Below the pieces are notes generated by a model that was given only the letters and a program-made list of their open reading frames with translations, was not told the DNA's origin and did no database searches. A program made the translations under genes and the position numbers. A DNA stretch of 29,519 bases from an uncultured Candidatus Saccharibacteria bacterium (GTDB taxonomy: Bacteria > Patescibacteriota > Minisyncoccia > Phycocordibacterales > Phycocordibacteraceae): assembly GCA_964356775.1 (NCBI GenBank), contig CAYHIQ010000002.1:1-29519 (forward strand). Reading direction: 5' to 3'. Below are positions 3,779 to 27,694 of the stretch, piece by piece; the stretch's first letter is position 1; every line of letters begins with the position of its first letter.

Positions 3779-3785
3779 ACGGCCT

Positions 3786-6678: not shown

Positions 6679-6680
6679 CC

Positions 6681-10890: not shown

Positions 10891-10899
10891 TGCTACCAT
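10891..10899 (+). promoter_or_regulatory. Extended -10 TGcTACCAT, 7 nt before ATG 10907
   Basis: Read directly, immediately after the stop at 10890. Confidence 0.45.
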
Positions 10900-10906
10900 G
10901 AGCGTC

Positions 10907-11305
10907 ATGCGCATACTGAAGTTCCTCACGACCGGAATCATCGGCGTTAGCATGAATCTCGGGCTCTTTTATACGTTATATGTGGTCGGTGTGCCGTATC
11001 TTGCGGGGTCCGCTACAGCATTTCTCTGCGCACTTCTCGCGGGTTTCGTTCTCCAGAAGTACTGGACGTTTGAAGACCGTGCGCCGGAGCGCTTACGCTC
11101 GCAATTTGCGCAGTATGCGGCACTCGCACTCGCGAATCTCGTGCTCAATACGGGAGTCGTGTACGTCCTTGTCGGGAGATTCGGCGTGTACTATCTGTTC
11201 GCGCAGGCGGTCGGAGCCGCGCTCGTCGCGGTCGACAGCTTCATCGCTTATCATCTGTTCATTTTCAGGCGACAGCAGGACAGTGGCGGAGCAGCCGGAG
11301 TATGA
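10907..11305 (+). CDS. GtrA-family small membrane protein (lipid-linked sugar translocase)
   Basis: 132 aa with four hydrophobic segments: KFLTTGIIGVSMNLGLF...QKYWTF...QFAQY..L...NLVLN...AQAVG...FIAYHLFIF. Start moved from 10691 to 10907 (alternative 10898). Confidence 0.82.
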   Translation: MRILKFLTTGIIGVSMNLGLFYTLYVVGVPYLAGSATAFLCALLAGFVLQKYWTFEDRAPERLRSQFAQYAALALANLVLNTGVVYVLVGRFGVYYLFAQAVGAALVAVDSFIAYHLFIFRRQQDSGGAAGV

Positions 11306-11324
11306 GTATACTGAACGTCATATT

Positions 11325-12341: not shown

Positions 12342-12351
12342 ATACCGCATC

Positions 12352-13089
12352 ATGTATCTCGGCAAAAAAGTAAGCATCGTCCTTCCGATCTACGACGAAT
12401 GTCAGAGTGTGCGCGCGGCTATTGAGGAATTCCTCCGCCATCCGGCCGTGGATGAGATCATCGCCGTTGATAACAACTCGAAAGATGGCAGCGATGCCGA
12501 GATCAAGCTCACCTCGGCGAAGTATGTGAAGGAAATGAAGCAAGGATACGGAGCGGCGCTTCGGCGCGGTATGCGCGAGGCGACGGGCGACCTTATTGTC
12601 ACGTGCGAGCCGGACGGTACATTCCGCGCGAGCGATCTTGACCGGCTTCTCGTCTACAGTCAGGAATACGATGTCGTACTCGGTACACGCACCTCAAGGA
12701 GTCCGGTCTGGTCCGGCGGCGATCCGGGAGTAAACATGGACTTCGCGCTTCGCATGGGCAATTGGGCGGTCGCAAAGCTTCTCGAGTATCTGTTTGGCGG
12801 CCCCTCCCTCACGGACGTTGGTTGCAGTTACAAACTCATTCATCGCTTAGCGTACGAACAAGTAAAAGATTCGTTCACGGTCGACGGCAACTGGTTCTCT
12901 CCGGAATACATTATTCGCGTGCTCGAGCGCCGGCTTTCTGTCGTGGAAGTTCCGGTGCGTTACGGTGCGCGCATCGGAACTTCGAAAATTACTGGGAAAC
13001 GATCGAAAGCTATTGCGCTCGGGTTCCGTATGATAGGGTTCATCCTCTTCGAACGAATAACATCATGGATTCCTCATGCATCCGCATAA
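12352..13089 (+). CDS. Glycosyltransferase family 2, polyprenol-phosphate glycosyltransferase (DPM1/GtrB-like)
   Basis: SIVLPIYDE, VDNNSKDGS, QGYGAAL..G, DVVLGTR, LTDVGCSYKL, VEVPVRY..RIGTSK. Confidence 0.85.
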   Translation: MYLGKKVSIVLPIYDECQSVRAAIEEFLRHPAVDEIIAVDNNSKDGSDAEIKLTSAKYVKEMKQGYGAALRRGMREATGDLIVTCEPDGTFRASDLDRLLVYSQEYDVVLGTRTSRSPVWSGGDPGVNMDFALRMGNWAVAKLLEYLFGGPSLTDVGCSYKLIHRLAYEQVKDSFTVDGNWFSPEYIIRVLERRLSVVEVPVRYGARIGTSKITGKRSKAIALGFRMIGFILFERITSWIPHASA

Positions 13090-13102
13090 TGCCATACAGA
13101 GC

Positions 13103-14869
13103 ATGACCGAGTTCTTGGGACGACACCGCCCTCTCGTGGTGCTCCTTGCTCTGATACTCACACTGTCTCTCATCCCTGCTCTCGAAATATTCTTTTTCCT
13201 CGGAAACTCGTGGCAGGGTATTCCACCAGTGTTCGGCGATGAGACGCTCTATCATGCTCGCGTGCAGACCATAGTTCAGGGTCACACAGGAGGCAATCCC
13301 TATTTTATGGAGCACAGCGACGGACCTCCACTCGTTGTCTTCGGTGGCGCGTGGCTCAATGCGATTCCAGGTTTACTTGGCGTTTCATTCAATACAACGC
13401 TACTGCTCAATTTCATGTTGTGGAGTTTATTGTTTGCTTTGTCGGCGTTCTATCTGTTTCGTGAATTACGGGTACCGCCTTGGGTGGCTGTAGGCAGTAC
13501 TGTTTTTGTATACCTACAGTCGTATGCACATGTGTGGCGGCCCGCCAACCTTCAGCCAGTGTACCCATTCATTTTCCTATTTTATCTTGTCCTCGCACGT
13601 TTTATGCGTGAGCAGAGCCGGAGAAATAGCATACTGCTAGCTCTTGCAACGGGTGCAACATTTTACCTATATGCTTTTTTGTGGCAAATCGCTGTTGTCA
13701 CGCTCGGTCTTCTTGCTCTCTACGCGTTTGCGCAGAAGAATTGGCCGCTTTTGAGAGCAACAATTTTCTCGTCCTGTATCGGCGGCGCCATCGGACTTCC
13801 AGTGCCGCTCTATGTAGTATGGCTTTCGCATACGTCACCCTATTTCTGGGAGAGTCTTGGTCGTCTTGGGCTCGTGAACACGCATCTGCCGATGGCCGAG
13901 GTCATGTATTCGGGCGGATGGATCGGCATTGTGCTTGTATTGCTTCTCGTGCTCTCTAGGAAGGTGCAGATGTTGCGAGAAGACGTGGCTTTTGTGTCGC
14001 TCGGACTTTTTCTCACTATAAGCGGGTTTGGACTCTGGGGTATGCAGGGGAGTAATCTCATTACCGGCAAATTATTTGAAACGGCTGAGCACGTACGCAT
14101 ATTGATTCTCCCGTGGCTCGTATTCGCTACTGTTAGTTTGGGTGTATTTCTTTGGGAGCGGCGTGTACTCATGTCGAAATCAGTCCGGGTATTTTCGATC
14201 GCGGTAATCATTCTATTATCTGGAGCGCATGGATATTTCTTGAGGGAGTACATAGCTCCATTTTTACCGGCAAGCATCAGTCGCGAATCGTGGCAGACGC
14301 AGCAGCTCTATGCAAAACCTTTTGCGTGGTTGCAACAGCAGGAGAAAGATCCAATTGTCGTATGGAGCGACCCACATGATTTTCTCGCTACAGATCTTCC
14401 GGTCTTTACTCGACACTTCGCCTTGTATGCCTATTGGGGAATGCTTGAGTTGGTGCCTGAAGGTGAGATTCGTGAACGGTATCTCATCTCACAGTATTTT
14501 AATAATCCGACACTTTCTGATCTCAAATCAGAAAGTGAAATGTCGCTCTATCTTGGTCGTCACGATTTTCCTCATGAAGCGAAGACTGTTGAGCGGGGAA
14601 TTAAGCTCTGTCGAATACTGTTCTTTTGGGATACGCATAAAGAGTGTGGAACGCCCCCGACGCCGCAAAGCCTCTTGGGGGAAAAATTCTTCACCGATCT
14701 CGAGAGTAAGTTTCAGACCGACATAAAGCCGAACATCAAAACGTACCTGAAGAAGTATCATGTTGCGTACATACTGAAGGACAAGGTGCTCAATCCTACG
14801 TATCATCCCGAAACCCTTGGGGCGAAGCTGGTGTACGCTGATGACAGGTTCGAAATTTATCACCTTTAG
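13103..14869 (+). CDS. Polytopic membrane protein, probable GT-C-fold glycosyltransferase (alternative start 13076)
   Basis: About 11-13 hydrophobic segments, an acidic first-loop motif GDETLYHARV, and a ~190 aa soluble C-terminal domain; lies directly after GtrA and GT2 genes. Confidence 0.55.
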   Translation: MTEFLGRHRPLVVLLALILTLSLIPALEIFFFLGNSWQGIPPVFGDETLYHARVQTIVQGHTGGNPYFMEHSDGPPLVVFGGAWLNAIPGLLGVSFNTTLLLNFMLWSLLFALSAFYLFRELRVPPWVAVGSTVFVYLQSYAHVWRPANLQPVYPFIFLFYLVLARFMREQSRRNSILLALATGATFYLYAFLWQIAVVTLGLLALYAFAQKNWPLLRATIFSSCIGGAIGLPVPLYVVWLSHTSPYFWESLGRLGLVNTHLPMAEVMYSGGWIGIVLVLLLVLSRKVQMLREDVAFVSLGLFLTISGFGLWGMQGSNLITGKLFETAEHVRILILPWLVFATVSLGVFLWERRVLMSKSVRVFSIAVIILLSGAHGYFLREYIAPFLPASISRESWQTQQLYAKPFAWLQQQEKDPIVVWSDPHDFLATDLPVFTRHFALYAYWGMLELVPEGEIRERYLISQYFNNPTLSDLKSESEMSLYLGRHDFPHEAKTVERGIKLCRILFFWDTHKECGTPPTPQSLLGEKFFTDLESKFQTDIKPNIKTYLKKYHVAYILKDKVLNPTYHPETLGAKLVYADDRFEIYHL

Positions 14870-14878
14870 TCACGCTCT

Positions 14879-15580
14879 ATGCAAATGCTTCACAACACTC
14901 CCCGTAACGAGCCGTTTGGTGCAGATGGTTTGCGGCGCATGTACCGTGCTCGTTTCGCGGGAAGACAGATGTATAGGGACAGCGTGTGGGGCGTCTTGAT
15001 TCGAGATTATTTCCAGCGATTGGTTCGCCCAGAGGATGTGGTGCTCGACATGGGCGCGGGATATGGGGAATTCATAAACCATATTCGATGCGGCAAGAAA
15101 TACGCGCTCGATTTGAACCCCGATACTGCCGATCGAGTGAGTGGTGATGTCGAAGTGATTGCGCAGGAATGTTCTGCGTCGTGGCCGTTTCCAGACAATC
15201 ATCTCGACGTCGTATTTACGAGCAATTTTTTAGAGCATCTTCCGGACAAGCGGGCGCTCTCGCGGACGCTTGGCGAGGCAAACCGCTGTCTCAAGCCTGA
15301 CGGACGCCTTATCGCGATGGGGCCGAACATAAGATATCTTCCCGGGGCGTACTGGGACTTTATCGACCACCATATCCCGCTTACCGAACAATCGCTTTCC
15401 GAGGCGCTCGGGCAGCAAGGGTTCCGCATAGAGAAATGCATCGATAGATTCCTGCCGTTCACGATGGTAAACGGACCGCAGTACCCCGTCTTCTTTCTTG
15501 CAGTCTATCTGCGGATTCCGTTTATCTGGCGCATCTTCGGGAAGCAATTCCTCGTTCTGGCAAAGAAGGAAAGCCTATGA
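14879..15580 (+). CDS. Class I SAM-dependent methyltransferase
   Basis: VLDMGAGYG, ALDLNP, DVVFTSNFLEHL, CLKPDGRLI. Confidence 0.88.
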   Translation: MQMLHNTPRNEPFGADGLRRMYRARFAGRQMYRDSVWGVLIRDYFQRLVRPEDVVLDMGAGYGEFINHIRCGKKYALDLNPDTADRVSGDVEVIAQECSASWPFPDNHLDVVFTSNFLEHLPDKRALSRTLGEANRCLKPDGRLIAMGPNIRYLPGAYWDFIDHHIPLTEQSLSEALGQQGFRIEKCIDRFLPFTMVNGPQYPVFFLAVYLRIPFIWRIFGKQFLVLAKKESL

Positions 15581-16701
15581 AGATGTATTACGTCGCGAAC
15601 GCCCGCATGCCGAACGAAAAGGCGCACGGCATCCAGATAGCCAAGATGTGCGAGGCTTTTATAGAGGCCGGCGTCGACCTGACGCTCGTCGTGCCGAAAC
15701 GATGGTCGCCGCCATCGGATATGCAGACATTTTATGCGCTCCGCACTCCAGTGCCGCTCGTGCAGCTCTGGATCCCGAGACTCTACCAGTTCGGGAAATT
15801 CGGTTTTTTCTTCAGCTCGCTGTACTTCATGGTGCGGTACTCTTTCTTCCTGGTCGGAAGGCGCGTTCGAGGAGAGAGGTTCCTGATATATACGGTAGAC
15901 ATGGATTCTTTTTCAAGTACTCTCCTTCCGCTCTTCGGTCCGTGTGTGATTGAAATGCACTCGCCTAAAAACACTACTATCGCGTCGCGATTTTTCTTTC
16001 GCAATGCTATTGGTGTAATCGCCACCAACCCGCTCATCCAGGAAGCACTGATACAGACGTTTGCACTTCTTCCGAAACGCGTTGTTGCTGAACCCAATGG
16101 CGTCGACGGTGCATTTTCCGAGCAGAAGCTCTCCAAAGAGGAGGCGCGCCATACTCTTTCGCTTCCTGCCGGCTTAAAGTTGGCACTCTATGTCGGCCGC
16201 ATGTACGAGTGGAAAGGTCTGGAAGTAGTATCTGCCACCGCTGAGCGGCTCGCAGAAAAGAATATTACTCTCGGCATCGTCGGCGCGACGCGTGAGGAGT
16301 TCGAGCGAGTGACAAAACGATCAGGAGAGCGGATTGTTTTTTATGGCGGCCATCCAAGTGCGGAGATACCTACATGGCTCGCGGCAGCGGACGCCCTCTT
16401 CGTTGTCGGTACGAAGCGCGACGAAGCATCGTATCGTTACACCGCGCCGATGAAGATATTTGAATACCTGGCGGCGCGGCGTCCGGTGGTCGCGACAAGG
16501 ACTCCTGCGCTTGAGAGTTTAATTGCTGACGAGGTTGTATGGTGTGATCCGGATGATGCGGAAGATCTCGCGCGAGCGCTCGCACAGGCGATAGAACGTC
16601 CCGATTTCGCTCGCCTCACGCGTGCGTCTTCGCTCGCGCAGAACCACGCGTGGGGCGCTCGCGCGCAGCGCATTATGCATTTTATCGAACACCATGACTG
16701 A
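15577..16701 (+). CDS. Glycosyltransferase family 4
   Basis: ARMPNEKAHGIQIAKMCEAF, PNGVD, YVGRMYEWKGLE, YTAPMKIFEYLAARRPVVAT. Confidence 0.9.
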   Translation: MKMYYVANARMPNEKAHGIQIAKMCEAFIEAGVDLTLVVPKRWSPPSDMQTFYALRTPVPLVQLWIPRLYQFGKFGFFFSSLYFMVRYSFFLVGRRVRGERFLIYTVDMDSFSSTLLPLFGPCVIEMHSPKNTTIASRFFFRNAIGVIATNPLIQEALIQTFALLPKRVVAEPNGVDGAFSEQKLSKEEARHTLSLPAGLKLALYVGRMYEWKGLEVVSATAERLAEKNITLGIVGATREEFERVTKRSGERIVFYGGHPSAEIPTWLAAADALFVVGTKRDEASYRYTAPMKIFEYLAARRPVVATRTPALESLIADEVVWCDPDDAEDLARALAQAIERPDFARLTRASSLAQNHAWGARAQRIMHFIEHHD

Positions 16702-17302
16702 ACTCTGGACCGGAAAAATATATGCCCGAGATGGATTTACGCGTACGAACGTACTCGGCGCCACTGTGGCGCTCGACATAGGATGCGGAAATCGCAGACT
16801 TCCCGGCGCGCGCGGTGTCGACATTCTTTCGCTTCCAGCCGTTGATGTCGTACACGATCTAGCGCGATTTCCGTGGCCGTTTGCCGACTCAAGCATCGAT
16901 CTTGTCCTTGCCAATCATTTTTTGGAACATTCGGAGGACGTCGTGCGTACCATGGAGGAAGTGTATCGGATACTCTCGCCAGGCGGCCGTTTCGTCATCC
17001 AGGTTCCATATTTTCGCAGCGTAGATGCGATTAATGATCCTACGCATCGCCGATTTTTCTCTTCGCAGTCGCTCGATTATTTCATCGAAGGTTCGAAATT
17101 GTTCGATTATCATTATGCTAAGGCGTGTTTTGCAAGGCGTGGATTCTGCTACGGATGGCCGCATCCTTCCAAGAATCCGCTCAAGCGGTTTGGCAAGGCT
17201 CTCATCACGAGGCATCCTCATTTCTATGACCAATACCTCTCGTTACTTTTTCCGATGAAGTGCCTTACCTGGGAGCTCGAGGCAGTCAAAACGGAGATCT
17301 AG
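16694..17302 (+). CDS. Class I SAM-dependent methyltransferase (type 11-like)
   Basis: LDIGCG, VVHDLARFPWPFADSSID..LANHFLEH, EVYRILSPGG, VPY...DPTH. Start moved to ATG 16694. Confidence 0.85.
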   Translation: MTELWTGKIYARDGFTRTNVLGATVALDIGCGNRRLPGARGVDILSLPAVDVVHDLARFPWPFADSSIDLVLANHFLEHSEDVVRTMEEVYRILSPGGRFVIQVPYFRSVDAINDPTHRRFFSSQSLDYFIEGSKLFDYHYAKACFARRGFCYGWPHPSKNPLKRFGKALITRHPHFYDQYLSLLFPMKCLTWELEAVKTEI

Positions 17303-18459
17303 TTATTTGGTATCCCAAAAACATAATAGGAACTTGTGGCACTCATGAGCTTCTCTTTAAGGAAGGGAAGGTCTACGAGAGGGCTGAGGGAGGCACTACC
17401 ATCCGCCATTTTTATGAACAGGCGTAGATACATTTTCTCTCCACCATGCTTCGCTTCAACCATTTCGGCATCTGAACTCCCAAAAGAAGAGATATCGGTA
17501 AAGTCGTAGAAGTCGAATCCGTATGTTCGGTACACCGCCGCAAGTGTCGGGGCTAGGATTTTGAACGAAGAAGCATACGTCGAGTGCGGGTGTTCTTTGA
17601 GCGCGCGGTACTCCTTGTAGGCAAGAGGCGGGAGGAAGCCGATAACGGTTATTCCGCGTGTTTTGCACAGCTCAAGAAATGTCCGAAGTTCTGCAAGAGA
17701 ATCGTTTGAGATCGCATCTCCGTATACATCGCCGTTTGTGTCGGTAATGCTTGCTGCAAGGGCGTCAATGTCTGAGAGTGTTTTTTTCTGGACGAGAGGA
17801 GAACGGATGGCGTTTCCCCAGTAGCTGCTCCCGTCGTTCGTGAACCCATCCCCCGTAGTGCGGGCGCGCAGGCCGATAATGACAGTAGGGCTTTGTCGCG
17901 GGGTAAAGACATCGGTAAGCGTAAACTTTCCTGAGAAATAATCCGTATACACTTTCCACCACCCACCGTTGCGGAAAAAACTTTCGAAGAAAGGGTCGTA
18001 CGGTTGATCTCGAGTGGTAAACGGATTCGGTCTCGACATGACGTGATTCTTGGCGTTTTCGGGAGTAAACAGAGCCTGCTCCATATTCGCAATGACAATC
18101 TTCGGCGGGGTAGCGAGCTGATTTATAAAATAGACGTAATCACTGAGCGGGCCGACTGCGCCAGTTGTATTGTAAAAAACAGTTGGTTCTTTGAAGAATG
18201 CCGATCGGAACTCACCGACATGCGAGTTCCCCAGAGTGATGACTTGCGGCGCGCGCGCGCTTACTTCATCGATCTGTAGTGCCGGTCCGAAATTACTATA
18301 GGCCTGTCCGACGAGTATCGGTTGAGGCTGGTTCATCAGGTGTGCGACCATACTCAACGGATAAAATTCTCCGGACCATAGAAGCAGGACGAATGCTGGC
18401 GCGAAGAGTGCCGCAAGCGGCAGTAGAAAGAATACAAGTTTTTTTATGAATGCGCGCAT
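17299..18459 (-). CDS. Membrane-anchored SGNH-like protein, DltD/AlgJ-type partner of the MBOAT
   Basis: N-terminal TM (MRAFIKKLVFFLLPLAALFAPAFVLLLW), ITLGNSH (GxS block I), GFLPP, C-terminal EAKH (DxxH-like). True start ATG 18459 lies 1 nt after the MBOAT stop; the ORF-track start 18606 overlaps the MBOAT. Confidence 0.6.
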   Translation of the reverse strand: MRAFIKKLVFFLLPLAALFAPAFVLLLWSGEFYPLSMVAHLMNQPQPILVGQAYSNFGPALQIDEVSARAPQVITLGNSHVGEFRSAFFKEPTVFYNTTGAVGPLSDYVYFINQLATPPKIVIANMEQALFTPENAKNHVMSRPNPFTTRDQPYDPFFESFFRNGGWWKVYTDYFSGKFTLTDVFTPRQSPTVIIGLRARTTGDGFTNDGSSYWGNAIRSPLVQKKTLSDIDALAASITDTNGDVYGDAISNDSLAELRTFLELCKTRGITVIGFLPPLAYKEYRALKEHPHSTYASSFKILAPTLAAVYRTYGFDFYDFTDISSFGSSDAEMVEAKHGGEKMYLRLFIKMADGSASLSPLVDLPFLKEKLMSATSSYYVFGIPNN

Positions 18460-18460
18460 A

Positions 18461-19936
18461 TCAGAATTGGAAATAAATGAAGGTCTTTGGTACGAAGTTT
18501 CCCGCAAAGAGTATCCAGATGATGAATGCGTAATAGAGGGACCATCGTAGCGTGCGGCGGTACCACCATGCCGGAAGAGCAAGGCGGAGTTCTGTAAAAA
18601 GTTCATACGCGAACAAAATTGTTACGGAAACGCCAATCATAGCTAAGGTGGTCTTGCCGATACCTATTTCATAAAATGCGCAATAGTTCGTGCAAGTAAG
18701 ATATGAGAAAGCCCCCGGCCCCCAATCAAGGAAGACCTTTTTAATGATGGTGATGGCTTGGGTAAGATCATTGGCCCGGAAGAATACCCATGAAAAAGAT
18801 GCGAGAACAAACGTGATTACTATGTTTATACTGCGGGTATAAAAGGCATCCAGTTTAATAGGAAAGAAGCCAAGTATTTTTTCGCGAAGACTTCTCGTCC
18901 ATACTTCTAGACAAATAAGCAGACCGAATATGAGCCCCATAATGATAAAGTTCAACCCGGCTCCGTGCCACACTCCGGTAAGCAGGAAAGTGGTGATGAT
19001 TGAAAGGTACACCCAGGCAGCGCCACGCCCTTTTCCGCTCCAGACGAGTGGGTAGTAGACATAGTCTCGAAACCACAAGGAAAGCGATATATGCCATCGT
19101 CGCCACAATTCCGCAATAGACTCCGCGAAATACGGCTGTCTAAAATTCTGCGCAAGTTCTATGCCAAGCATACGCGCAGACCCGACAGCAATGTCGGAGT
19201 AGCCGGAGAAATCCGCATACAGCACGATCGCGAAAGAGAATACAGCGAGCAATACCATCGATCCGTTTGCGGTATCCAAGTGGCCATATACGAAATCAAC
19301 AAGAATCGCCAGATTGTTTGCTATGACTATTTTCTTAAAAAATCCCCAGAGCAGTAACTGTAGTCCCGAGACGGCACTATCATAGTTGAATGTGTGAGTG
19401 TTTCTTAGTTGCGGCAATAGGTGCTCCGGTCTCTCGATGGGACCAGCAACGAGCTGTGGGAAGAACATGACATAGAGGGCGTACGTAACATAGTTTCGTT
19501 CGGCGGCAAAACGTCCTTTATACACTTCGAAAATGTACGCGAGACTTTGAAATGTATGGAAAGATAATCCGATCGGCAAGATAATCGCTAACGACTCCAA
19601 CGAGTAATTCCAATGAAGAAAGTCTGCGAGAGTAGCGACATTTTGATTGAAAAAATTGAAGTATTTAAAAAAGAACAGAGTTCCGATGTTCGTAGCAATA
19701 CCGAACACAAGGTAAAGCATTCTGGTTTTTCCGACTGATCTCTCGATTCGCAAACCGAGGATATAGTCGATGGTAATGAGAAAAAAGAGTACAAGAATGT
19801 ACTGCGGGATGAACGCCATATAAAAGTAACAGCTTGCTAGAAGCAAGAGCCATTTTTGCCATGCTGCCGGAAGAGTAAAATATAAAATAAAGACGGAAAC
19901 GAAAAAGATAACGAAGGGGATGGAATCGAAAAGCAT
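18461..19936 (-). CDS. MBOAT-family membrane-bound O-acyltransferase (AlgI/DltB/PatA-like)
   Basis: MLFDS..F, LPIGLSFHTFQ, FFPQLVAGPIER, GFFKK..IAN, YADFSGYSDIA, NFRQPY.A.SI.E.WRRWHISLS.WFRDYVY, G.WHGA (catalytic His), C-terminal FIYFQF. Confidence 0.95.
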   Translation of the reverse strand: MLFDSIPFVIFFVSVFILYFTLPAAWQKWLLLLASCYFYMAFIPQYILVLFFLITIDYILGLRIERSVGKTRMLYLVFGIATNIGTLFFFKYFNFFNQNVATLADFLHWNYSLESLAIILPIGLSFHTFQSLAYIFEVYKGRFAAERNYVTYALYVMFFPQLVAGPIERPEHLLPQLRNTHTFNYDSAVSGLQLLLWGFFKKIVIANNLAILVDFVYGHLDTANGSMVLLAVFSFAIVLYADFSGYSDIAVGSARMLGIELAQNFRQPYFAESIAELWRRWHISLSLWFRDYVYYPLVWSGKGRGAAWVYLSIITTFLLTGVWHGAGLNFIIMGLIFGLLICLEVWTRSLREKILGFFPIKLDAFYTRSINIVITFVLASFSWVFFRANDLTQAITIIKKVFLDWGPGAFSYLTCTNYCAFYEIGIGKTTLAMIGVSVTILFAYELFTELRLALPAWWYRRTLRWSLYYAFIIWILFAGNFVPKTFIYFQF

Positions 19937-19948
19937 GTAATTGCGGGC

Positions 19949-19958
19949 AGTGTATCAT
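19949..19958. promoter_or_regulatory. Overlapping divergent -10 elements: TATCAT (+, 19953-19958) and extended TGaTACACT (-, 19957-19949)
   Basis: Both read directly inside the 30 bp gap between the MBOAT start (19936) and the acpS ATG (19967). Confidence 0.45.
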
Positions 19959-19966
19959 AGAGTGTG

Positions 19967-20311
19967 ATGGCTCCGATGCTAAAAAAAGCAGGTATTGATT
20001 TGGTGGAAGTCGCGCGTTTTCATCCATTCATACACAACAAAAAACATTCTTTTTTACGGAAAGCTTTTTCCGAGAAGGAAATAGCATATTGTTTCGCGTA
20101 TAAGGATCCCTCGGTACACTTGGCGGGTATATTTGCGGCAAAGGAGGCGGTTGCGAAGGCTCTCGGCGCTGCCGAGACTGCTTTCATCGAATTCGAAATC
20201 CGACATGCGAAAGGCGGGGCCCCGGAAGTATGGAGGAAGGATCGCAGGTTATCTATTGCTGTGTCTATAACTCATACGGATGCGATGGCGGCGGCCATTG
20301 CCGTGGGGTAA
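19967..20311 (+). CDS. acpS: Holo-[acyl-carrier-protein] synthase (AcpS-type 4'-phosphopantetheinyl transferase)
   Basis: GIDLVEVARF, FSEKEIAY, AGIFAAKEAVAKALG, GAP, VSITH; ~114 aa. Confidence 0.9.
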   Translation: MAPMLKKAGIDLVEVARFHPFIHNKKHSFLRKAFSEKEIAYCFAYKDPSVHLAGIFAAKEAVAKALGAAETAFIEFEIRHAKGGAPEVWRKDRRLSIAVSITHTDAMAAAIAVG

Positions 20312-20314
20312 CAT
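20309..20314 (+). promoter_or_regulatory. Putative -10 TAACAT overlapping the acpS stop, 8 nt before ATG 20323
   Basis: Read directly. Confidence 0.35.
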
Positions 20315-20322
20315 GTGCCGAT

Positions 20323-21372
20323 ATGCGGGAAAATAAAAAGTGCCTCGTTCTCGACCTCGATAATACGCTCTGGGGAGGCGTGGTGGGCGAGGACGGGCTC
20401 GAGAACCTCCACCTCTCTCTTACTCCTCCGGGGAGCGGGTACCTCGCTTTTCAGCAAGCAATCCTCGACCATTTTCATCGCGGCGTCATGCTTGCGATCA
20501 ATAGTCGGAACAATCCGGAAGATGCGCTTCTCGTGCTGCGCACGCACCCCAATATGCTCTTGAAGGAGCATCATTTTGCCGCCATGCGCCTTAATTGGAA
20601 CGATAAGGCACAGAATTTACGCGAAATCTCTGAAGAACTCAATATTGGCCTTGATGCGATGGTATTCCTCGACGATGATGCAGCGAATCGTTCGCTCGTG
20701 CGCGCACTTCTTCCGGAAGTAGAGACGCCAGATTTGCCAGTGGATCCTTCCGACTATGCGCGATTCTTAAATGCACAACAGTATTTCCCTTCAGAGGCAA
20801 TTACTGACGAAGATAAGATGCGAGGGAATCTGTATGTGACCGAACGCCTGCGAAGAGAGCAGGAAAAGCGTTATGCGAATAAAGAGGAATTTCTCGCGAG
20901 CTTGAAGCTCGAGCTCATTTGTAGCGAAGATGATAGCTCTTCTCTCGCGCGGCTGGCGCAACTTACTGAGAAGACAAATCAGTTCAATACGAACAAACGC
21001 CCACTTTCTGAAGGCGAGATACGCGCTTACCTCAAGAGTCCGGTACATCACGTATACCAGGCGCAGCTGCTCGATATATTTGGTGACTCTGGCATTGTCG
21101 CCTTCGCTCTTGTTGAAGAGCAAGGCAAGGAGTGGCATATCGATCAGCTCCTGATGAGCTGTCGTGTGTTCGGGCGTGCTGTCGAAAAAGCGTTTCTTGC
21201 TTTTATCGCGGACCGAGCTCATTCCGCAGGCGCGGAGCGTCTCTCTATCTCTTTTATCGAAACACCGAAGAATATGCCGGCAAAGGCGTTTCTCGATACT
21301 CATTTCAAGATGCGCACGCTCGCGCTCCACAAGATTCCTGCTGTGCCGACATGGATAACGATGCACGTATGA
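20323..21372 (+). CDS. FkbH-like HAD-IIIC glyceryl transferase/phosphatase
   Basis: KCLVLDLDNTLWGGVVGEDG (HAD motif I), LAINSRN, NWNDKAQN...ELNIG.D..VFLDD, KTNQFN, D.FGDSGIV, LMSCRV.GR.VE. Start moved to ATG 20323 (349 aa). Confidence 0.92.
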   Translation: MRENKKCLVLDLDNTLWGGVVGEDGLENLHLSLTPPGSGYLAFQQAILDHFHRGVMLAINSRNNPEDALLVLRTHPNMLLKEHHFAAMRLNWNDKAQNLREISEELNIGLDAMVFLDDDAANRSLVRALLPEVETPDLPVDPSDYARFLNAQQYFPSEAITDEDKMRGNLYVTERLRREQEKRYANKEEFLASLKLELICSEDDSSSLARLAQLTEKTNQFNTNKRPLSEGEIRAYLKSPVHHVYQAQLLDIFGDSGIVAFALVEEQGKEWHIDQLLMSCRVFGRAVEKAFLAFIADRAHSAGAERLSISFIETPKNMPAKAFLDTHFKMRTLALHKIPAVPTWITMHV

Positions 21373-21596
21373 AAACCTTTAACGCCATTGCGAGCCAGAT
21401 GTTCACTCTTCCAGAAGAGGGTATACATGACGCTCTCACGAGTCACGATATTCCAGCATGGGATTCTATGAATTATGTTTTTTTCATAGCAGAATTGGAA
21501 AAAGAATTCGGCATTTCATTCAGTATGGATGAAGTGATGAACGTCTCCTGTCTCGGAGACTTGCGCGCTATCGTCGAGAAGCGCGCGAAGAAATAG
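21369..21596 (+). CDS. Acyl carrier protein (75 aa)
   Basis: MKTFNAIASQMF...IPAWDSMNYVFFIAELEKEFGISFSMDEV; WDS phosphopantetheine serine. ATGA overlap with fkbH; it is the last 75 aa of ORF 21132..21596. Confidence 0.9.
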   Translation: MKTFNAIASQMFTLPEEGIHDALTSHDIPAWDSMNYVFFIAELEKEFGISFSMDEVMNVSCLGDLRAIVEKRAKK

Positions 21597-21597
21597 T

Positions 21598-22017
21598 ATG
21601 GAACCGGTCGAGCTCGCATTCGAAGATATCAGTGTGGGGGACAGTGCATCATTCGAGAGGGTCTTTACCACAGAAGATGTGCAGGCATTCGCGGCGTTGA
21701 GCGGCGATACAAACCCACTTCACACAAGCGAGTCGTACGCTGCCGGAACGCGTTTTAAAAAACCGCTCGTGCACGGGATGTTGGCGGGCGCACTCTGCTC
21801 TACTCTTGTGGGCATGCATTTGCCAGGCAAGCAGTGCCTGTACTTGCGCCAGACGCTCTCGTTCAAAAAACCTATTTTTATCGGCGACTCGCTCCGTATC
21901 ACGGGAGTTGTCACTGAAAAAGTTGCGGCGACCCGTATGCTCACGCTTGCGATTTCGATAACCTGTGAGGGCGTCCACGCGATAGAAGGGATGGCGACGG
22001 TACAGGTACTTGTATGA
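21598..22017 (+). CDS. MaoC/PhaJ-like hotdog-fold dehydratase
   Basis: FAALSGDTNPLH (catalytic D-x4-H), LVHGML, F.KPIFIGD. Confidence 0.9.
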   Translation: MEPVELAFEDISVGDSASFERVFTTEDVQAFAALSGDTNPLHTSESYAAGTRFKKPLVHGMLAGALCSTLVGMHLPGKQCLYLRQTLSFKKPIFIGDSLRITGVVTEKVAATRMLTLAISITCEGVHAIEGMATVQVLV

Positions 22018-22038
22018 TAGTAGGGATGCAATAATTTT

Positions 22039-22803
22039 ATGCAGGCACTCAAAAAAAACAGGAAAATAGCTCTCGTATCCGGAGGTATGGGGTATGTAGG
22101 GAAGGCTGTCACGCAAAGATTCGCCCAAGACGGTATCTCTGTTGTCGTCATGTACCATACGTCCTCGCAAGAATCGGTAGATGAATTTCTGATGTTGTTA
22201 GGGGAAGGGCACGCCGCCTATCAGTGCGATTTGGGAAATGAGGCGCAGATGCAAGAAACGATAGCGACGATAGAGCGCGAACAGGGACCGGTTTCGATAT
22301 ATGTGCATGCGGCGGGAGCATCGCCATCGCGTAAGCCGCTCCACCTTACTTCGACCGAAGAGGTGCTCGAAGCATTTAAGAAAAATGCGCTCAGCGGGTT
22401 TAATTTCTTTACCGCCGGTGCGACGTATCTGAAGGAGCGGAAAGAGGGCGTAATGATCGGTATCACTACGGCTGCGGTTGTTTTTCCTCAGAGCGTCGGT
22501 TCACTTGGTCCTTATGTAGCAGCAAAGTATGCGCTTCAGGGCATGCTTGCATCGTTTCGGGCTGAGCTTTTACCCTTTGGGATCCGCGTTTATTCAGTCG
22601 CGCCCGGTTTTATGGAAGGGGGAATGAATAGTGTGTTTCCGAAAGCATTTGTTGAGATGGTAAAAGCGAAAAGTCCTACAAAAATGCTCGCGACCGCTGA
22701 AAATATTGCTGAGCACATTTCATTTCTTGTCTCTGATGCGGGGAAAGATTTCACTGACCTTACGATTGTCGTTGCTCCTGAATTGGAGGTTCATGCTCTA
22801 TGA
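22039..22803 (+). CDS. Classical SDR oxidoreductase (FabG/ketoreductase-like)
   Basis: ALVSGGMGYVGKA, YQCDL, VHAAG, PYVAAKYAL (YxxxK), IRVYSVAPGF. Confidence 0.88.
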   Translation: MQALKKNRKIALVSGGMGYVGKAVTQRFAQDGISVVVMYHTSSQESVDEFLMLLGEGHAAYQCDLGNEAQMQETIATIEREQGPVSIYVHAAGASPSRKPLHLTSTEEVLEAFKKNALSGFNFFTAGATYLKERKEGVMIGITTAAVVFPQSVGSLGPYVAAKYALQGMLASFRAELLPFGIRVYSVAPGFMEGGMNSVFPKAFVEMVKAKSPTKMLATAENIAEHISFLVSDAGKDFTDLTIVVAPELEVHAL

Positions 22804-23861
22804 ATATTCGCAAAGCACTGACCTTTCGCGCGTCGTCTATCGGCGATTGTTTGATGGGGAAGTATCTTTTGGAGAATATTCACGCAGAGTATCCAGAGAC
22901 TCGTCTCGGCATCGTGGTAGCGGGCCGTGCAGCGATGATTCGCGATTTGTTCGCGGCCTATCCCTGGCTGGAGGTCATCGAAGCGAATCGTCGCAATCCG
23001 AGAACGCTCTTCGCGCTACTCCGTGATTTCCATGGAAGTGATTTGGTCGTAACGCAATATGCGGGCAAGAAGGGAGGAAGGTTCGGTTTTGGAAGCAAAC
23101 TTTTCGCGCGCCTGTTGGCACGAAGAGGAGGACTTGTTGGATTCACGGATGCGTTCCGATGGAATAGTGTCCTCTATGACCAGCTCGTACCAATAAAGGC
23201 CGGAGAGTCGATCGCTGAACATGAACGCGAAGTACTCGCGACTGTCGAGGTAACAGTCTCTTTACCGTTCCCCAAGCTCATTTGTTTGCCGGATGGCGCT
23301 ATTGTAGAAAAATTCGGCGTCGACGCGGAGAAGTTCATCATCGTGCACTTTTTTGCTGGAGGGAAGGGTCGGAGCATGAGTCCCGAAAAGAGTAGGGAAC
23401 TTCTCACGGCACTGCGTCGTGTTCTCTCTGATGACATTTCCATACTTGTAAGCGGGTCATCGGCGGACCGCTCATCTGCGCGCGCAATCGCGGAAGGCAT
23501 AGATGCGAAAGTCATCGCCGGAGAAACGACTTTGCAAGAAATGATGTGTCTTATCAAAGAGAGTCGGTGTGTGATCAGTGTTGACACCGGCATGGCTCAC
23601 ATCGCTGCGCATCTCGGGACGCCGCTCGTCGTCATGCGTACCTGCGTCGGCCGCAATTGGTGGCTCGCCGGGCAATATGGCGAGAACGCGCCCATCACGG
23701 TATGTGCTCACGATGTGTCGTGTAGAGATGGACATGTGAATAAGGAATATCCAGAGTGTCTGAACGAGATTTCCGTTGAAGAGATTGCCAACGCCGCAAG
23801 ACAATGTGTGTTACGTGACGACTCGCAGACGAGTTATAGAGAGGAAGCATCCCTTTCATGA
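22800..23861 (+). CDS. Glycosyltransferase family 9 (ADP-heptose transferase-like)
   Basis: TFRASSIGDCLM, YP, AGETTLQEMMCLI, ISVDTGMAHIAAHLGTPLVV. Confidence 0.85.
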   Translation: MNIRKALTFRASSIGDCLMGKYLLENIHAEYPETRLGIVVAGRAAMIRDLFAAYPWLEVIEANRRNPRTLFALLRDFHGSDLVVTQYAGKKGGRFGFGSKLFARLLARRGGLVGFTDAFRWNSVLYDQLVPIKAGESIAEHEREVLATVEVTVSLPFPKLICLPDGAIVEKFGVDAEKFIIVHFFAGGKGRSMSPEKSRELLTALRRVLSDDISILVSGSSADRSSARAIAEGIDAKVIAGETTLQEMMCLIKESRCVISVDTGMAHIAAHLGTPLVVMRTCVGRNWWLAGQYGENAPITVCAHDVSCRDGHVNKEYPECLNEISVEEIANAARQCVLRDDSQTSYREEASLS

Positions 23862-25780
23862 AAACCAAACTGAAACGACCGCAGGGCAATCGTTCGCGCA
23901 CCCTCTTCCTGCTCTATGAGTTGGGGCATATTGACGGGCTCGAGCGTCTCTTCCGCAATCAGCCGCATGAGCGCGCGGGCTCGCTCACGGTAGCATTGTC
24001 GCTCGATATAGAGGAGGAATTGAGAAAAAGGAATATCCCTTTTTTTTCAGGATGCGACTATAAAAAGATCGCACCTGATTTGCTGACGGCGCAGGATGCA
24101 ATGATGGACGCGTTTTTTGCTGATCCGCGATGGAAGCTCTTTACCTATCGCGGCATCGAACTCCGGACAACATTTCTCTTCATGTTTCGCGCGTACTTTC
24201 AGAGGGTGTGGTATTACGGCAATCTGCTCATTTCTATCCTCGAGGCTCATCCAGAGGCGGAGCGTCTCGCCGTATTTGCTCCGAGTGGCATGCTGTCGAG
24301 TGTCGCGGGCGGCCTTTCGCATCGCGAGCGGGAAGTGGTTATTGATTGTGCAAAAATAGTTGCGGCAAGGTCTGGTATGCCGGTCACGGTCGTGCCGTCC
24401 GATCGCGTCAGCGAGGCGCTCCACGACCGTTTTAGACTTTTCTTTTTTACGGTGCAACGAATGCTGTTCGGTTTTTCGCTTGCGGTATGGAATGCGTCTA
24501 TTGCGTTTCTATGTCGCCCCCGTCGCCCTCGCCTACTTATAAGCGATCATTGGAGGAATGTCGGCTCGACCATCGAGCTTCTTAAGGAAGGGGAGTGCAT
24601 TTTCCTCGATCGTCAGGAGATACGCCATATTCCCTGGCGCATGCTTTTGCGTTATCGGATGCATTTCGTGCACAGCGAGGATTTCGTATCGCGAAGTATG
24701 CGAAAACGTGCTCAGAAATCCGCGCAGGAATTTGCACGGGAGTGGGATACTCTGCGTTCCGATATCGACCCCGTCTTCATGTTCCGAGGATACTCATTCG
24801 ATGCTCTTTTGGTGCAGGCGGTTGACGATATTGTTCGCGGATTCGGAAAGTTGTTGCGTGAGATCGAGGGTACGTATGCGCTCTATGAACATTTCAAGCC
24901 CGATGTCGTCCTGCTGCGCGCGAGCGTGAGCGGACAAACGCATTTTTCCATTCTGCCGCTCGTCGCAAGAGAAAAACACATACTCTCCTTGGAGCTGCAG
25001 CACGGACTTGAATATCTCGGACCCGGTTCCTGGTCGCGCGAGCATGCGGCCGAACATATCGCCTCGTATGGGCCGCTCGTGAAGGAAGAACTTGTTTCGG
25101 CAGGGCACGCTCCGGAGCGCGTGCATGAGATTGGCTCGCCGCGTTTTGACGATCTGTCACGGATACCGGCTGTCGAGGGAAGTGGCGGACGCTCGCTTAC
25201 GGTACTGTGCATTTCTCCCGATATCCGTGTCTTCGAAATATATGATTCCTACAGCGCTGAGGATTATTTCACCACCGTAGCAGCGGCGATTGAGGCGCTC
25301 GGGGATGTGCGAACGATTATCAAATTCAGGCCGGGATCTCCTGACGAAGATCCGCTCCGCCTGATCGCCGCGAAGGCCTTTTCGAGGGTGCCGTACGTAG
25401 CGGCATCTTCCGAACCGCTTTCAGGTCTGTTCGATCAGGCGGATATTGTCGTCTCGTGCTATTCGACCGTGGCCCTAGAAGCCCTTCAGCGCGGTATGCC
25501 GGTCATCGTCCCTTCTCTGAATTCCGTCGATGCAGCGGTGGTACGCTTCCATTTCTCTCGTTATGTTGACGCGGGAGCGCTTCGCATCGCTTCGACTCAA
25601 GAGGAACTCGCCGCTTCGCTTGCGGAACTCGAAGCGAATCCTGCGCTGCGGAGCGACATGGGGGAGCGAGCTCGAGCATTCATTGACCGAAATTTCAGCT
25701 TTGACGGGCACTCGTCATCCCGATGTGCCGCTCTTATAATGGAGCTCGCTGATCGCTCGATGTCTTCCGTGCCGGAATAA
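23858..25780 (+). CDS. Hypothetical protein with C-terminal GT-B-like domain (CDP-glycerol transferase / nonulosonate or Kdo transferase-like); paralog 1
   Basis: LELQHGL, IGSPRFD, IIKFRP, ADIVVSCYSTVALEALQRGMPVI, FSFDGHSS. Confidence 0.55.
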   Translation: MKTKLKRPQGNRSRTLFLLYELGHIDGLERLFRNQPHERAGSLTVALSLDIEEELRKRNIPFFSGCDYKKIAPDLLTAQDAMMDAFFADPRWKLFTYRGIELRTTFLFMFRAYFQRVWYYGNLLISILEAHPEAERLAVFAPSGMLSSVAGGLSHREREVVIDCAKIVAARSGMPVTVVPSDRVSEALHDRFRLFFFTVQRMLFGFSLAVWNASIAFLCRPRRPRLLISDHWRNVGSTIELLKEGECIFLDRQEIRHIPWRMLLRYRMHFVHSEDFVSRSMRKRAQKSAQEFAREWDTLRSDIDPVFMFRGYSFDALLVQAVDDIVRGFGKLLREIEGTYALYEHFKPDVVLLRASVSGQTHFSILPLVAREKHILSLELQHGLEYLGPGSWSREHAAEHIASYGPLVKEELVSAGHAPERVHEIGSPRFDDLSRIPAVEGSGGRSLTVLCISPDIRVFEIYDSYSAEDYFTTVAAAIEALGDVRTIIKFRPGSPDEDPLRLIAAKAFSRVPYVAASSEPLSGLFDQADIVVSCYSTVALEALQRGMPVIVPSLNSVDAAVVRFHFSRYVDAGALRIASTQEELAASLAELEANPALRSDMGERARAFIDRNFSFDGHSSSRCAALIMELADRSMSSVPE

Positions 25781-25788
25781 TTTTCCTT

Positions 25789-27648
25789 ATGGTATCCCTT
25801 TTACGCGAGATATTCATTGCCTACGAGTCCGAGCATATTAATGAAGCGCACTCCCGCGCTGAAGCGGGCGCGACCATCATCGTCTTCAATTTCTTAGTCG
25901 AGTGCGAACTTAAGGAAAGAGGCGTTCCCTACATCTCGCTGCGCGACATCATCGATATGAAAGCGGAGGAAGGGTATTGGTCGATACTCTCCCATGAAGT
26001 GGCTCGAGAATGGTACCGAATTCCCGTCATGATGTTTTTTACCTACGAGGGTATCCGGATTGCTGAGGCTCCGGAGCCGGTCATGCAAGCGTACTTAGCA
26101 CGACTTTTTTATTACGTGCTGGTATACGCCGCCATAAAAAAAGCGTATCCGAACGCACAGGTTTTCATTCCAGAGCCTTCCGTTCTCGGCGATTCTGCAG
26201 CCGCTGTCTGTCTCGCTCCGTTTGTGCAGTGGGCGGTCATCGACGCGGCGCGCATGGTCGGCCTTCGTTATTCTGCCCAAGGCTTCCGCACGGTGCCGGT
26301 ATATGTGCCGCCCAAGCTTTCGTGGAAGTGGCTCATCTTGCGTGCCTACAATCTGCTCGTCGGCTTTATCCCGCGCCGTGGTTTCAAAATATACGCGAGT
26401 GAATACTGGACGCACCTTGCACCCATCGTTCCTTACCTGCAAGATTCGGAGCTCATGCTTCTGGAGAGTAGCAGATTCACAAACATACCCTGGCGACAGA
26501 CTCTTACTCATCGCATCCGCATCTTTCATTCGCACGACGTATCGAGCAGGATAGAGGAGCGAGATACTATGCGGATTTCAGCGGAATTCGCGAACCAATG
26601 GAAAAACGCGAAGCAAGAGGTTGCGGAGTATCTCGCTTCCGTACGGGACGATCTCGATTGGAGTCCTGTGCTTGAAGCGTGCGAGTATCTCATCGCGTAT
26701 GCGCCGCGCGTCATTGCCGATATAAAAACGCTGCGCCGCATCATGCAAAAAGAAAAACCGGATCTTGTACTTCAGATGGCGTCCGTCGGCGGCCCAGAAC
26801 ACTACTTTTTCCTCATGGCGCAGGTCGCAAGGCAACTCCATATTCCTTCGCTTGAGCTCGAGCACGCCACTGCGACCATCGATCCCCGCTCGGTGTTTTG
26901 CCGGATCGAGACAGACTATCTTGCGACCTACGGCGAGGACGTGAATAGGTGGCATGAACGCATAGGGCACGCACCAGAGCGGCTTATTGCGGTCGGTTCG
27001 CCGCGCTTCGACCGTTACGTGAATGAGCGCACGCAAGGAGTCGAAAGAGGTAAGCGGATGCTTGCAGAGCTCGGGCTCGACACTGCGCGGCCGGTCCTTT
27101 TCGCGTCCATCCCGTTTTCCGATATGTATGTCGGTACACCCGATTCCTATCAGCTTGCGGAATTCTTCGAGACGATCCGCGAGGTTCAAGAAAAAGTGCC
27201 CGGTCTCCAAATTCTCTTTAAGTTCCGCAGTCGTTCCCATGTCGGCGCGATGCAGAAATATCTTCAGGAGTTGTTTCCTGTGGACGTGGCGATGGCCGCG
27301 GATGAGGATATCTTCGCGCTTCTGTGCGCGAGCGATGTCGCCGTATGTAATAATTCGACCGTAATTTATCAGGCGATTCTCTCAGGGAAGCCACTGGTCC
27401 TTTATCCATGGAAAGCGTTCGACTCATATCACGCGAAGGTGTATGCGCAGGAGATACCGCTCTTTTACAACGCTCGGGAAGTCATTGACAGTCTCGTTCG
27501 CATTTTTGGGGAAGTGTCTTATCAAGAAGAACTTCTAGTGCAACAGAGACAGTTTCTCCAGAGATATTCTTTTGATGGGAAGTCGTCCGAGCGTTTGGCG
27601 GCACTTCTACGGAAGCTGTCGAAGCGAGGTCGGGATGAAACTTTATAA
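25789..27648 (+). CDS. Hypothetical protein with C-terminal GT-B-like domain; paralog 2
   Basis: LELEHA, VGSPRFD, LFKFRS, SDVAVCNNSTVIYQAILSGKPLV, YSFDGKSS. Confidence 0.55.
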   Translation: MVSLLREIFIAYESEHINEAHSRAEAGATIIVFNFLVECELKERGVPYISLRDIIDMKAEEGYWSILSHEVAREWYRIPVMMFFTYEGIRIAEAPEPVMQAYLARLFYYVLVYAAIKKAYPNAQVFIPEPSVLGDSAAAVCLAPFVQWAVIDAARMVGLRYSAQGFRTVPVYVPPKLSWKWLILRAYNLLVGFIPRRGFKIYASEYWTHLAPIVPYLQDSELMLLESSRFTNIPWRQTLTHRIRIFHSHDVSSRIEERDTMRISAEFANQWKNAKQEVAEYLASVRDDLDWSPVLEACEYLIAYAPRVIADIKTLRRIMQKEKPDLVLQMASVGGPEHYFFLMAQVARQLHIPSLELEHATATIDPRSVFCRIETDYLATYGEDVNRWHERIGHAPERLIAVGSPRFDRYVNERTQGVERGKRMLAELGLDTARPVLFASIPFSDMYVGTPDSYQLAEFFETIREVQEKVPGLQILFKFRSRSHVGAMQKYLQELFPVDVAMAADEDIFALLCASDVAVCNNSTVIYQAILSGKPLVLYPWKAFDSYHAKVYAQEIPLFYNAREVIDSLVRIFGEVSYQEELLVQQRQFLQRYSFDGKSSERLAALLRKLSKRGRDETL

Positions 27649-27694
27649 CGGACTTTTGAGTTCAAGTGTGGTACAGTGTTGCACGATACAGGAT

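Follow-up and report, generated by a model that had tools for sequence, protein, structure and literature searches.

Organization of the cassette

The 29,519-nt stretch of DNA analysed here (the window) comes from a genome of 626 kb, recovered in 68 contigs and 85% complete, of which it makes up contig 2. Its host is a groundwater bacterium of the Patescibacteria, or candidate phyla radiation (CPR), whose relatives have genomes of 0.4–1.0 Mb. Homologs of the proteins described below occur in metagenome-assembled genomes (MAGs) of Kaiserbacteria, Saccharibacteria, Paceibacteria and Nomurabacteria. Positions 17299–22803 of the window hold a cassette of seven genes in two divergent arms, one encoding a membrane-bound O-acyltransferase (MBOAT) together with an SGNH-fold partner, and the other a set of enzymes that would build an acyl group on a dedicated acyl carrier protein (ACP). 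An original prediction, made from the DNA letters alone, had named these seven genes and placed them inside a glycan locus; profile matches and direct reading agree with it on both identities and positions, and the annotated surroundings are rich in glycosyltransferases.

The minus-strand arm encodes the SGNH-fold acyltransferase partner (17299–18459; 386 aa), which is membrane-anchored by an N-terminal transmembrane helix, is DUF1574-related and has a DltD-like fold, and the MBOAT acyltransferase (18461–19936; 491 aa; PF03062, 1e-20), which consists of a DltB-like core and a C-terminal extension. The SGNH gene begins 1 nt past the MBOAT stop codon. Its longest open reading frame (ORF) extends to 18606, overlapping the MBOAT gene, and Met50 of this long ORF, with a hydrophobic helix right after it, is the likely start. 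The plus-strand arm encodes an AcpS-type 4′-phosphopantetheinyl transferase (19964–20311), a short-form FkbH-type glyceryl-ACP synthase (20323–21372; 349 aa), the 75-aa ACP (21369–21596), a MaoC/hydratase-2 hotdog dehydratase (21598–22017) and a FabG-like ketoreductase of the short-chain dehydrogenase/reductase (SDR) family (22039–22803). Stop and start codons overlap or almost touch within each arm; for example, the ATG of the ACP overlaps the stop codon of FkbH.

The divergent intergenic spacer between the MBOAT and AcpS starts (19937–19963, no strand) is 27 nt long as read from the sequence, with AcpS starting at the GTG at 19964; the gap is 30 nt, as originally proposed, when counted to the ATG at 19967. 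An assembly chimera at this junction was considered and rejected, because zero-mismatch contigs from two groundwater sequencing runs bridge it, as does a 49.8-kb contig from another study with ∼94% identity, which keeps the entire arrangement free of insertions or deletions. RNA runs were also sought and none were found; the runs listed are DNA, and those with an organism label are groundwater metagenomes.

The acyl-building arm

All seven components of the cassette have intact catalytic residues. AcpS matches PF01648 (5.6e-14) and exceeds the cut-off of TIGR00516 (63.9 bits; cut-off 59.8), retains its acidic residues, and heads the module in related loci. FkbH scores 287 bits against TIGR01686 (cut-off 146.65) and 61.8 bits against the HAD-IIIC model. 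An alignment of 11 homologs shows invariant D11-x-D13-x-T15, D117-D118 and S279-C280-R281 motifs. Unlike most of its relatives, this short form lacks the FkbH_N domain; the FkbH of locus L047 (same order) is likewise short, at 346 aa. FkbH-like enzymes use 1,3-bisphosphoglycerate (1,3-BPG) to form glyceryl-ACP in polyketide pathways (PMC7489565), and FkbH loading modules that yield lactyl-ACP are listed in a second source (PMC7901079).

The ACP, whose operon also encodes AcpS, matches the PP-binding model above cut-off, and a W31-D32-S33 triplet that includes the phosphopantetheine serine is invariant across an alignment of 13 module ACPs. Its best PDB match is 2lml, a generic putative ACP, and orthology with DltC is not established. 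The MaoC protein (PF01575, 3.3e-19) contains an intact hydratase-2 motif, S-G-D-x-N-P-L-H, and is kept beside the ACP in most related cassettes. The SDR contains the glycine-rich loop and YxxxK motif (adh_short_C2, 4.7e-34); its best NCBIfam matches are 3-oxoacyl-ACP reductases, all below cut-off. This last gene is the most variable of the arm, as it is missing from two related cassettes (L001 and L005) and an aldo-keto reductase stands in its place in a third (L028).

The MBOAT and its SGNH partner

Against TIGR04091, the equivalog model for DltB, the MBOAT reaches 150 bits, below the cut-off of 375, and its PDB sequence matches (DltB, 8jem and 6bug) cover residues 120–388 only. The predicted structure (pLDDT, the predicted local distance difference test, of 87) has its best fold match in DltB (6bug_C, E 1.6e-13, template-modelling score 0.71), and HHAT, PORCN and LPCAT3 are also among the fold matches. 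The ∼100 extra C-terminal residues form additional helices that terminate in FIYFQF, an instance of the FXYXXF acyl-shuttle motif. In Dlt systems this motif lies on the microprotein DltX, while PatA, AlgI and their like carry it as a fused part of the MBOAT, on two added helices; in either arrangement its tyrosine takes over the acyl group from the histidine of the MBOAT and hands it to the serine of the SGNH protein, and an acyl-tyrosine intermediate is known for both PatA and DltX (PMC12148441). Residues H282, H324, F486, Y488, F489 and F491 are invariant among 22 homologs. The low pLDDT of residues 485–491 suggests a flexible tail in the model, in keeping with a mobile shuttle. By its fused FXYXXF tail, this MBOAT is of the PatA/AlgI type, with a DltB-like fold.

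The SGNH partner has no match at threshold in Pfam, NCBIfam or a PDB sequence search, and it was placed on the basis of its predicted structure and weak DUF1574 matches. The AlphaFold model, built with 35 homologs, has a pLDDT of 93, and in it an N-terminal helix leads into an SGNH fold. Exhaustive structural comparison returns two DltD chains first (7dxm, Z 11.5; 6pfx, Z 11.4), which also give the longest alignments (225–238 residues), and generic SGNH esterases (Z ∼11) and PatB (7tjb, Z 10.9) come just after. Foldseek likewise ranks DltD first, though weakly. G77, S79, D319, D330 and H338 are invariant among the 35 homologs, and the candidate catalytic triad is Ser79, Asp330 (or Asp319) and His338, counted from Met50 of the long ORF. 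DUF1574 is matched weakly by 15 of the 35 family members and DltD faintly by one; by sequence, the family is a distant relative of DUF1574 that lies outside the DltD sequence family.

Linkage of the two arms across genomes

Starting from the SGNH protein, loci (L numbers) were gathered from assemblies as well as from a single genome for each species, and were annotated by iterated profile searches. At least nine CPR loci, including the window, place the MBOAT–SGNH pair next to FkbH and ACP, in four gene orders. Five loci (L006, L009, L011, L013 and L047) read AcpS-FkbH-ACP-MaoC-SDR-MBOAT-SGNH, and two (L001 and L005) read AcpS-FkbH-ACP-MaoC-MBOAT-SGNH. In L002 the pair comes first (MBOAT-SGNH-AcpS-FkbH-ACP-MaoC-SDR), and the window has the divergent form. 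In a truncated contig (L019), the MBOAT–SGNH pair is closely preceded by a fragment of MaoC and an SDR.

The linkage extends beyond the CPR. An Omnitrophota locus (L017) reads MaoC-SDR-FkbH-ACP-MBOAT-SGNH. In a Treponema MAG (L028, 3288–11077), an FkbH that carries FkbH_N is followed by ACP, MaoC, the aldo-keto reductase, a split transketolase, MBOAT and SGNH, and the transketolase implies extra carbon–carbon chemistry on the carrier-bound unit. A member of the Chitinophagaceae (Bacteroidota; L024, 5154–11125) encodes FkbH, an S-adenosylmethionine-dependent methyltransferase, ACP, a Glyoxalase_4-like protein, MBOAT and SGNH. Similarly, a member of the Oscillospiraceae (Bacillota; L052, 7683–13837) encodes FkbH, ACP, Glyoxalase_4, MBOAT and, in the partner position, an uncharacterised 687-aa protein. 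The Glyoxalase_4 proteins of these two loci, together with the methyltransferase of L024, suggest that the glyceryl unit is tailored differently there, possibly by O-methylation. The co-occurrence on which the original prediction turned is thus found in the CPR and in three other phyla, with FkbH-ACP-MBOAT in Bacillota in addition.

Three Geomonas species (G. anaerohicana, G. paludis and G. propionica; L020, L021 and L022, ∼6900–16000) carry GT9-ACP-MBOAT-SGNH, the family 9 glycosyltransferase (GT9) lying ∼200 nt upstream of the ACP. These loci lie between lipid A and core genes (lpxB, msbA, lpxL, kdtA, lpxK) and a full pseB-C-F-H-I set, which comes after the SGNH gene. FkbH was not found in the one Geomonas genome searched, so the ACP beside the pair appears tied to the MBOAT itself, beyond any association with FkbH alone.

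Of 401 Patescibacteria genomes sampled, 5 carry a true FkbH, and the cassette is accessory. Besides the host, one of these genomes has a full cassette (L047). A second (L048, 7855–14990; also CPR) encodes a 395-aa, DltB-sized MBOAT that lacks an FXYXXF tail, together with two GDSL/AlgX-like proteins, and a separate DltX-like microprotein may exist there. The remaining two (L046 and L049) have a different acyltransferase and are taken up below. Some acyltransferase always trails the FkbH arm in the loci examined, and the MBOAT is the sole acyltransferase candidate in the window. Members of the SGNH family were found in none of 40 relatives of the host genome. Because FkbH and the SGNH family are both so rare, yet the two gene sets adjoin in many loci despite shuffled order, their co-occurrence is far beyond chance, and chance adjacency was rejected.

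Metabolic context in the host genome

The recovered genome encodes glyceraldehyde-3-phosphate dehydrogenase, a source of 1,3-BPG. It contains one PP-binding protein, the cassette ACP, and one MBOAT, that of the cassette. The original prediction had remarked on the lack of a ketosynthase and an adenylation enzyme near these genes, and this extends to the whole recovered genome, in which neither a ketosynthase nor an AMP-binding enzyme (PF00501) was detected; acyltransferases of the polyketide synthase kind and thioesterases are likewise missing throughout it. PFOR, PTA, PDH-E2 and enzymes of the acetyl-CoA synthetase type were also not detected in the recovered genome, pyruvate formate-lyase being outside the set of enzymes checked. 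In a genome that is 85% complete, a sole carrier beside a sole MBOAT, with no acetyl-CoA source visible, favours the ACP as the acyl donor and also offers a reason for glycolysis to supply the acyl group directly.

A proposed carrier-fed acylation pathway

Taken together, the seven genes probably constitute one carrier-protein-fed pathway for the ester-linked acylation of a polymer that lies outside the cell membrane, a reading that we favour with moderate confidence. What the analysis establishes is the gene content, the intact catalytic motifs, the folds and a linkage conserved across phyla; the chemistry of every step, the binding of the ACP to the MBOAT, the nature of the acyl group and its acceptor are inferred. 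AcpS would convert the dedicated 75-aa ACP to its holo form. By analogy with polyketide systems, FkbH would take 1,3-BPG from glycolysis, remove the 3-phosphate and load the glyceryl unit onto the ACP thiol. MaoC would then remove the 3-hydroxyl to give an enol-pyruvoyl unit that tautomerises to pyruvoyl-ACP, and the SDR would reduce the 2-oxo group to give lactyl-ACP, in parallel with FkbH-DH-KR (dehydratase–ketoreductase) loading modules. At the cytoplasmic face, the MBOAT would accept the acyl group from the ACP thioester and pass it via His324 to Tyr488 of the FIYFQF tail at the outer face. The SGNH protein would receive it on Ser79 and transfer it to a hydroxyl of a surface glycan or glycoconjugate built by the locus. 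For the window, lactyl is more likely than glyceroyl or pyruvoyl as the acyl group; cassettes that lack the SDR or carry other tailoring genes probably deliver other C3-derived groups.

This scheme resembles the Dlt system (DltA, DltC, DltB, DltX and DltD) in several respects. Both would use an acyl thioester on a small phosphopantetheinylated carrier, a DltB-fold MBOAT with a catalytic histidine, an FXYXXF acyl-tyrosine shuttle, and a membrane-anchored SGNH protein (in the cassette, one whose predicted fold matches DltD best by a small margin), and the target is presumably a surface polymer in each case. However, the loader is FkbH, a HAD-type enzyme that would use 1,3-BPG, rather than the adenylating DltA, and no AMP-binding enzyme was found in the recovered genome. 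Instead of D-alanine, the proposed cargo is a C3 hydroxy acid that MaoC and the SDR would modify while it is bound to the carrier. Moreover, the shuttle motif forms the last six residues of the MBOAT instead of residing on DltX, the MBOAT falls well short of the DltB cut-off and is longer at its C-terminus, and the partner lies outside the Pfam DltD family. The original prediction of a Dlt/Alg-like relay from FkbH through ACP and MBOAT to the SGNH protein is supported by linkage and intact residues, but its one-to-one correspondence with Dlt fails on the fused shuttle, the lack of DltX and the DUF1574-related partner.

The membrane half is closer to PatA/PatB, AlgI/AlgJ/AlgX and WssH. As in those systems, an MBOAT of ∼480–490 aa with a conserved histidine and a fused C-terminal FXYXXF motif is paired with a separate, N-terminally anchored SGNH partner, and the pair would carry out extracytoplasmic O-acylation of envelope glycans. 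Non-Dlt MBOAT–SGNH pathways use an acyl-CoA donor (acetyl-CoA in the PatA/AlgI systems) and a fused shuttle, and ‘lack a similar carrier protein’, whereas Dlt combines a carrier donor with a separate DltX (PMC12148441). In contrast to PatA/AlgI systems, the pair in the window is linked to AcpS, ACP, FkbH and a tailoring set, in a genome with no detected acetyl-CoA source. The cassette would be a hybrid of the carrier-donor logic of Dlt and the fused-shuttle logic of PatA/AlgI.

The donor half has its closest parallels in polyketide biosynthesis. Lactyl-ACP loading modules of the FkbH-DH-KR type are exemplified by bryostatin and FR901464. As in polyketide FkbH systems (e.g., those for tetronates and methoxymalonyl-ACP), the DxDxT motif and SCR cysteine are intact and a stand-alone ACP adjoins FkbH, and the dehydratase and ketoreductase could yield lactyl-ACP by the same chemistry as the FkbH-DH-KR modules. 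Unlike those modules, the MaoC hotdog protein and SDR are free-standing, the recovered genome lacks the ketosynthase, acyltransferase and thioesterase of a polyketide synthase, and the acyl group would presumably go to a membrane acyltransferase encoded in a glycan locus. A dedicated small carrier that supplies an unusual acyl group within a glycan locus also has precedents in Vibrio cholerae, in AlmEFG, which places glycine on lipid A, and in the tetronate module of V. cholerae O1. Their loaders are adenylating enzymes, and their acyltransferases, which act at the cytoplasmic face, belong to other families; they are not known to have an MBOAT–SGNH relay or FkbH. In the literature that we searched, FkbH is nowhere described in a glycan locus, nor is any carrier-fed MBOAT–SGNH system apart from Dlt; the original prediction likewise knew of no biochemical account of the combination.

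The surrounding glycan locus

The locus around the cassette encodes six GT4 enzymes, a GT2, a GT47-like enzyme, a GT9, methyltransferases, an epimerase and, at the end of the window, pseB/pseC-like proteins. The GT9 gene (22800–23861, plus strand; PF01075, 1.7e-12) overlaps the SDR stop codon by 4 nt. GT9 homologs also lie near the cassette in L001, L005, L006, L011, L012, L013 and L047, with identities of up to 70% over an N-terminal fragment (L013) and 43–48% over the full length elsewhere. It is tempting to speculate that this enzyme installs the acceptor sugar.

Between the cassette and the pseB/pseC-like genes, at 23858–27648, are tandem paralogs of 640 and 619 aa with weak matches to BFO_1060-family, surface-carbohydrate and glycerophosphotransferase/glycosyltransferase proteins; these are candidate nonulosonic acid or polymer transferases. 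The pseB/pseC-like genes (27572–29519) begin ∼5 kb downstream of the cassette and are continued at 1–9286 of another contig of the genome (C6; L050), which encodes the C-terminal portion of the aminotransferase along with a class-III aminotransferase, a CMP-transferase, a GFO/IDH oxidoreductase, a DUF218 protein and NeuB, as well as two methyltransferases and an ATP-grasp enzyme. No N-acetyltransferase was recognised among the ORFs scanned over the first 15 kb of this contig. Together these genes form an unusual nonulosonic acid pathway for a CPR bacterium. At the opposite end of the locus, directly upstream of the first glycosyltransferase, positions 155–2626 encode a VirD4/TraG-like coupling ATPase and a ComEA-like helix-hairpin-helix protein.

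Contrary evidence and alternative explanations

Several observations weigh against the carrier-fed pathway. The sole biochemically tested fused-motif MBOAT, of the PatA type, takes acetyl-CoA (PMC12148441). On a tree of MBOAT sequences, in which CPR sequences form one clade, linkage to an ACP changes at least four times and clusters no better than in shuffles. An ACP-specific MBOAT clade was accordingly rejected, as linked and unlinked MBOATs are intermixed on the tree, and a search for residues that discriminate between them returned three weak hydrophobic positions, none convincing. With neither discriminating residues nor a linked clade, the sequence of the MBOAT does not reveal its donor. 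This means either that donors are readily exchanged or that certain seemingly unlinked pairs draw on carriers encoded elsewhere. Six such MBOAT–SGNH pairs lack a nearby ACP or FkbH (L007, L012, L018, L023, L026 and L029), and one of them, L012, is from a close CPR relative. In another close CPR locus (L004, identical to L014; genes 2601–7919), homologs of the pair with 60% (MBOAT) and 44% (SGNH) identity are preceded, in place of FkbH and ACP, by three genes with the domains ATP-grasp_2 and Citrate_bind, CoA_binding and Ligase_CoA, and Citrate_synt; the MBOAT is split into ORFs of 382 and 115 aa. The trio is ATP-citrate-lyase-like or citryl-CoA synthetase/lyase-like, and the locus has the appearance of a cassette that supplies itself with acetyl-CoA, which fits a logic in which each cassette brings its own donor supply.

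Further contrary points concern the donor arm and the host. The absence of the SDR from L001 and L005 means that the final acyl group is not uniform across cassettes. CoaE was not found in the recovered genome, though AcpS needs CoA; CoA or a precursor may be scavenged. The completeness of 85% limits all whole-genome absences. In addition, two CPR genomes (G388 and G165; L046, 8584–12928, and L049, 7141–12422) follow AcpS-FkbH-ACP-MaoC-SDR with a GNAT-like protein of 337–341 aa and no MBOAT, and the arm in L049 is also preceded by a polysaccharide deacetylase. These two loci are candidates for a cytoplasmic route of lactyl or glyceroyl N-acylation. The five-gene set is a portable module whose coupling to the MBOAT is strong, though not obligate.

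The GNAT-paired loci argue for an alternative in which the two arms are independent neighbouring systems, the main rival reading, which we regard as unlikely. The donor arm would then make a C3 acyl-ACP for cytoplasmic N-acylation, e.g., of the 4-amino sugar produced by the pseB/pseC-like genes, to yield a glyceroyl or lactyl nonulosonic acid, while the MBOAT–SGNH pair would O-acetylate a polymer from acyl-CoA, in line with the use of acetyl-CoA by PatA-type enzymes. The nearby pse-like genes and their continuation, with a CMP-transferase and NeuB and no recognisable N-acetyltransferase, are consistent with this arrangement, and N-glyceroyl pseudaminic acids do exist, the responsible genes being not known (PMC5378307). 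However, no GNAT, LbH or other soluble acyltransferase was found in the window, the GNAT-like partner in L046 has no match in the host genome, and no acetyl-CoA-forming enzyme was detected in the recovered genome. Moreover, adjacency of the two halves persists over four gene orders and at least four phyla, and many of these loci have no nonulosonic acid genes nearby.

A second alternative retains the proposed relay but changes its product: the target may be a membrane lipid, a lipid-linked intermediate or a surface protein, or the acyl group may be neither lactyl nor glyceroyl. MBOAT enzymes elsewhere acylate lipids and proteins, and HHAT, PORCN and LPCAT3 appear among the fold matches. The varied tailoring genes also leave room for other acyl groups, as cassettes may lack the SDR, combine an aldo-keto reductase with a split transketolase, or pair a methyltransferase with a glyoxalase-like protein. 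We nonetheless consider such a product somewhat less probable still than two independent systems, as all bacterial MBOAT–SGNH pairs characterised to date acylate cell-envelope glycopolymers (PMC12148441) and every locus examined is rich in glycosyltransferases. Finally, the sporadic distribution of the cassette (absent from the 40 relatives searched), the split MBOAT of L004 and the lack of RNA runs could point to a decaying or silent accessory island with no present function in the host, but the seven intact reading frames with their catalytic residues, the tightly packed start and stop codons within each arm, and the indel-free conservation in the ∼94%-identity strain make this very improbable.

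Implications

If the carrier-fed pathway operates as proposed, it would extend the known surface esters by a new class, lactyl or glyceroyl, with 1,3-BPG as the direct source. It would also provide a genetic basis for seeking unexplained glycerate and lactate substituents on bacterial glycans. The Geomonas ACP-MBOAT-SGNH loci, which are found in cultured strains, offer an experimental entry point, and each step is accessible via simple mass shifts on a 75-residue protein. More broadly, we see an even chance that PatA/AlgI-type relays are not limited to acetyl-CoA and that a widespread subset of them is fed from glycolysis by an FkbH-loaded carrier, giving lactate or glycerate esters on surface glycans in acetyl-CoA-poor CPR bacteria, with a donor arm that can be moved between MBOAT–SGNH pairs and GNAT-like transferases. 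The cassette points to a way in which ultra-small CPR bacteria may still decorate their surface although neither acetyl-CoA nor fatty-acid metabolism is visible in them.

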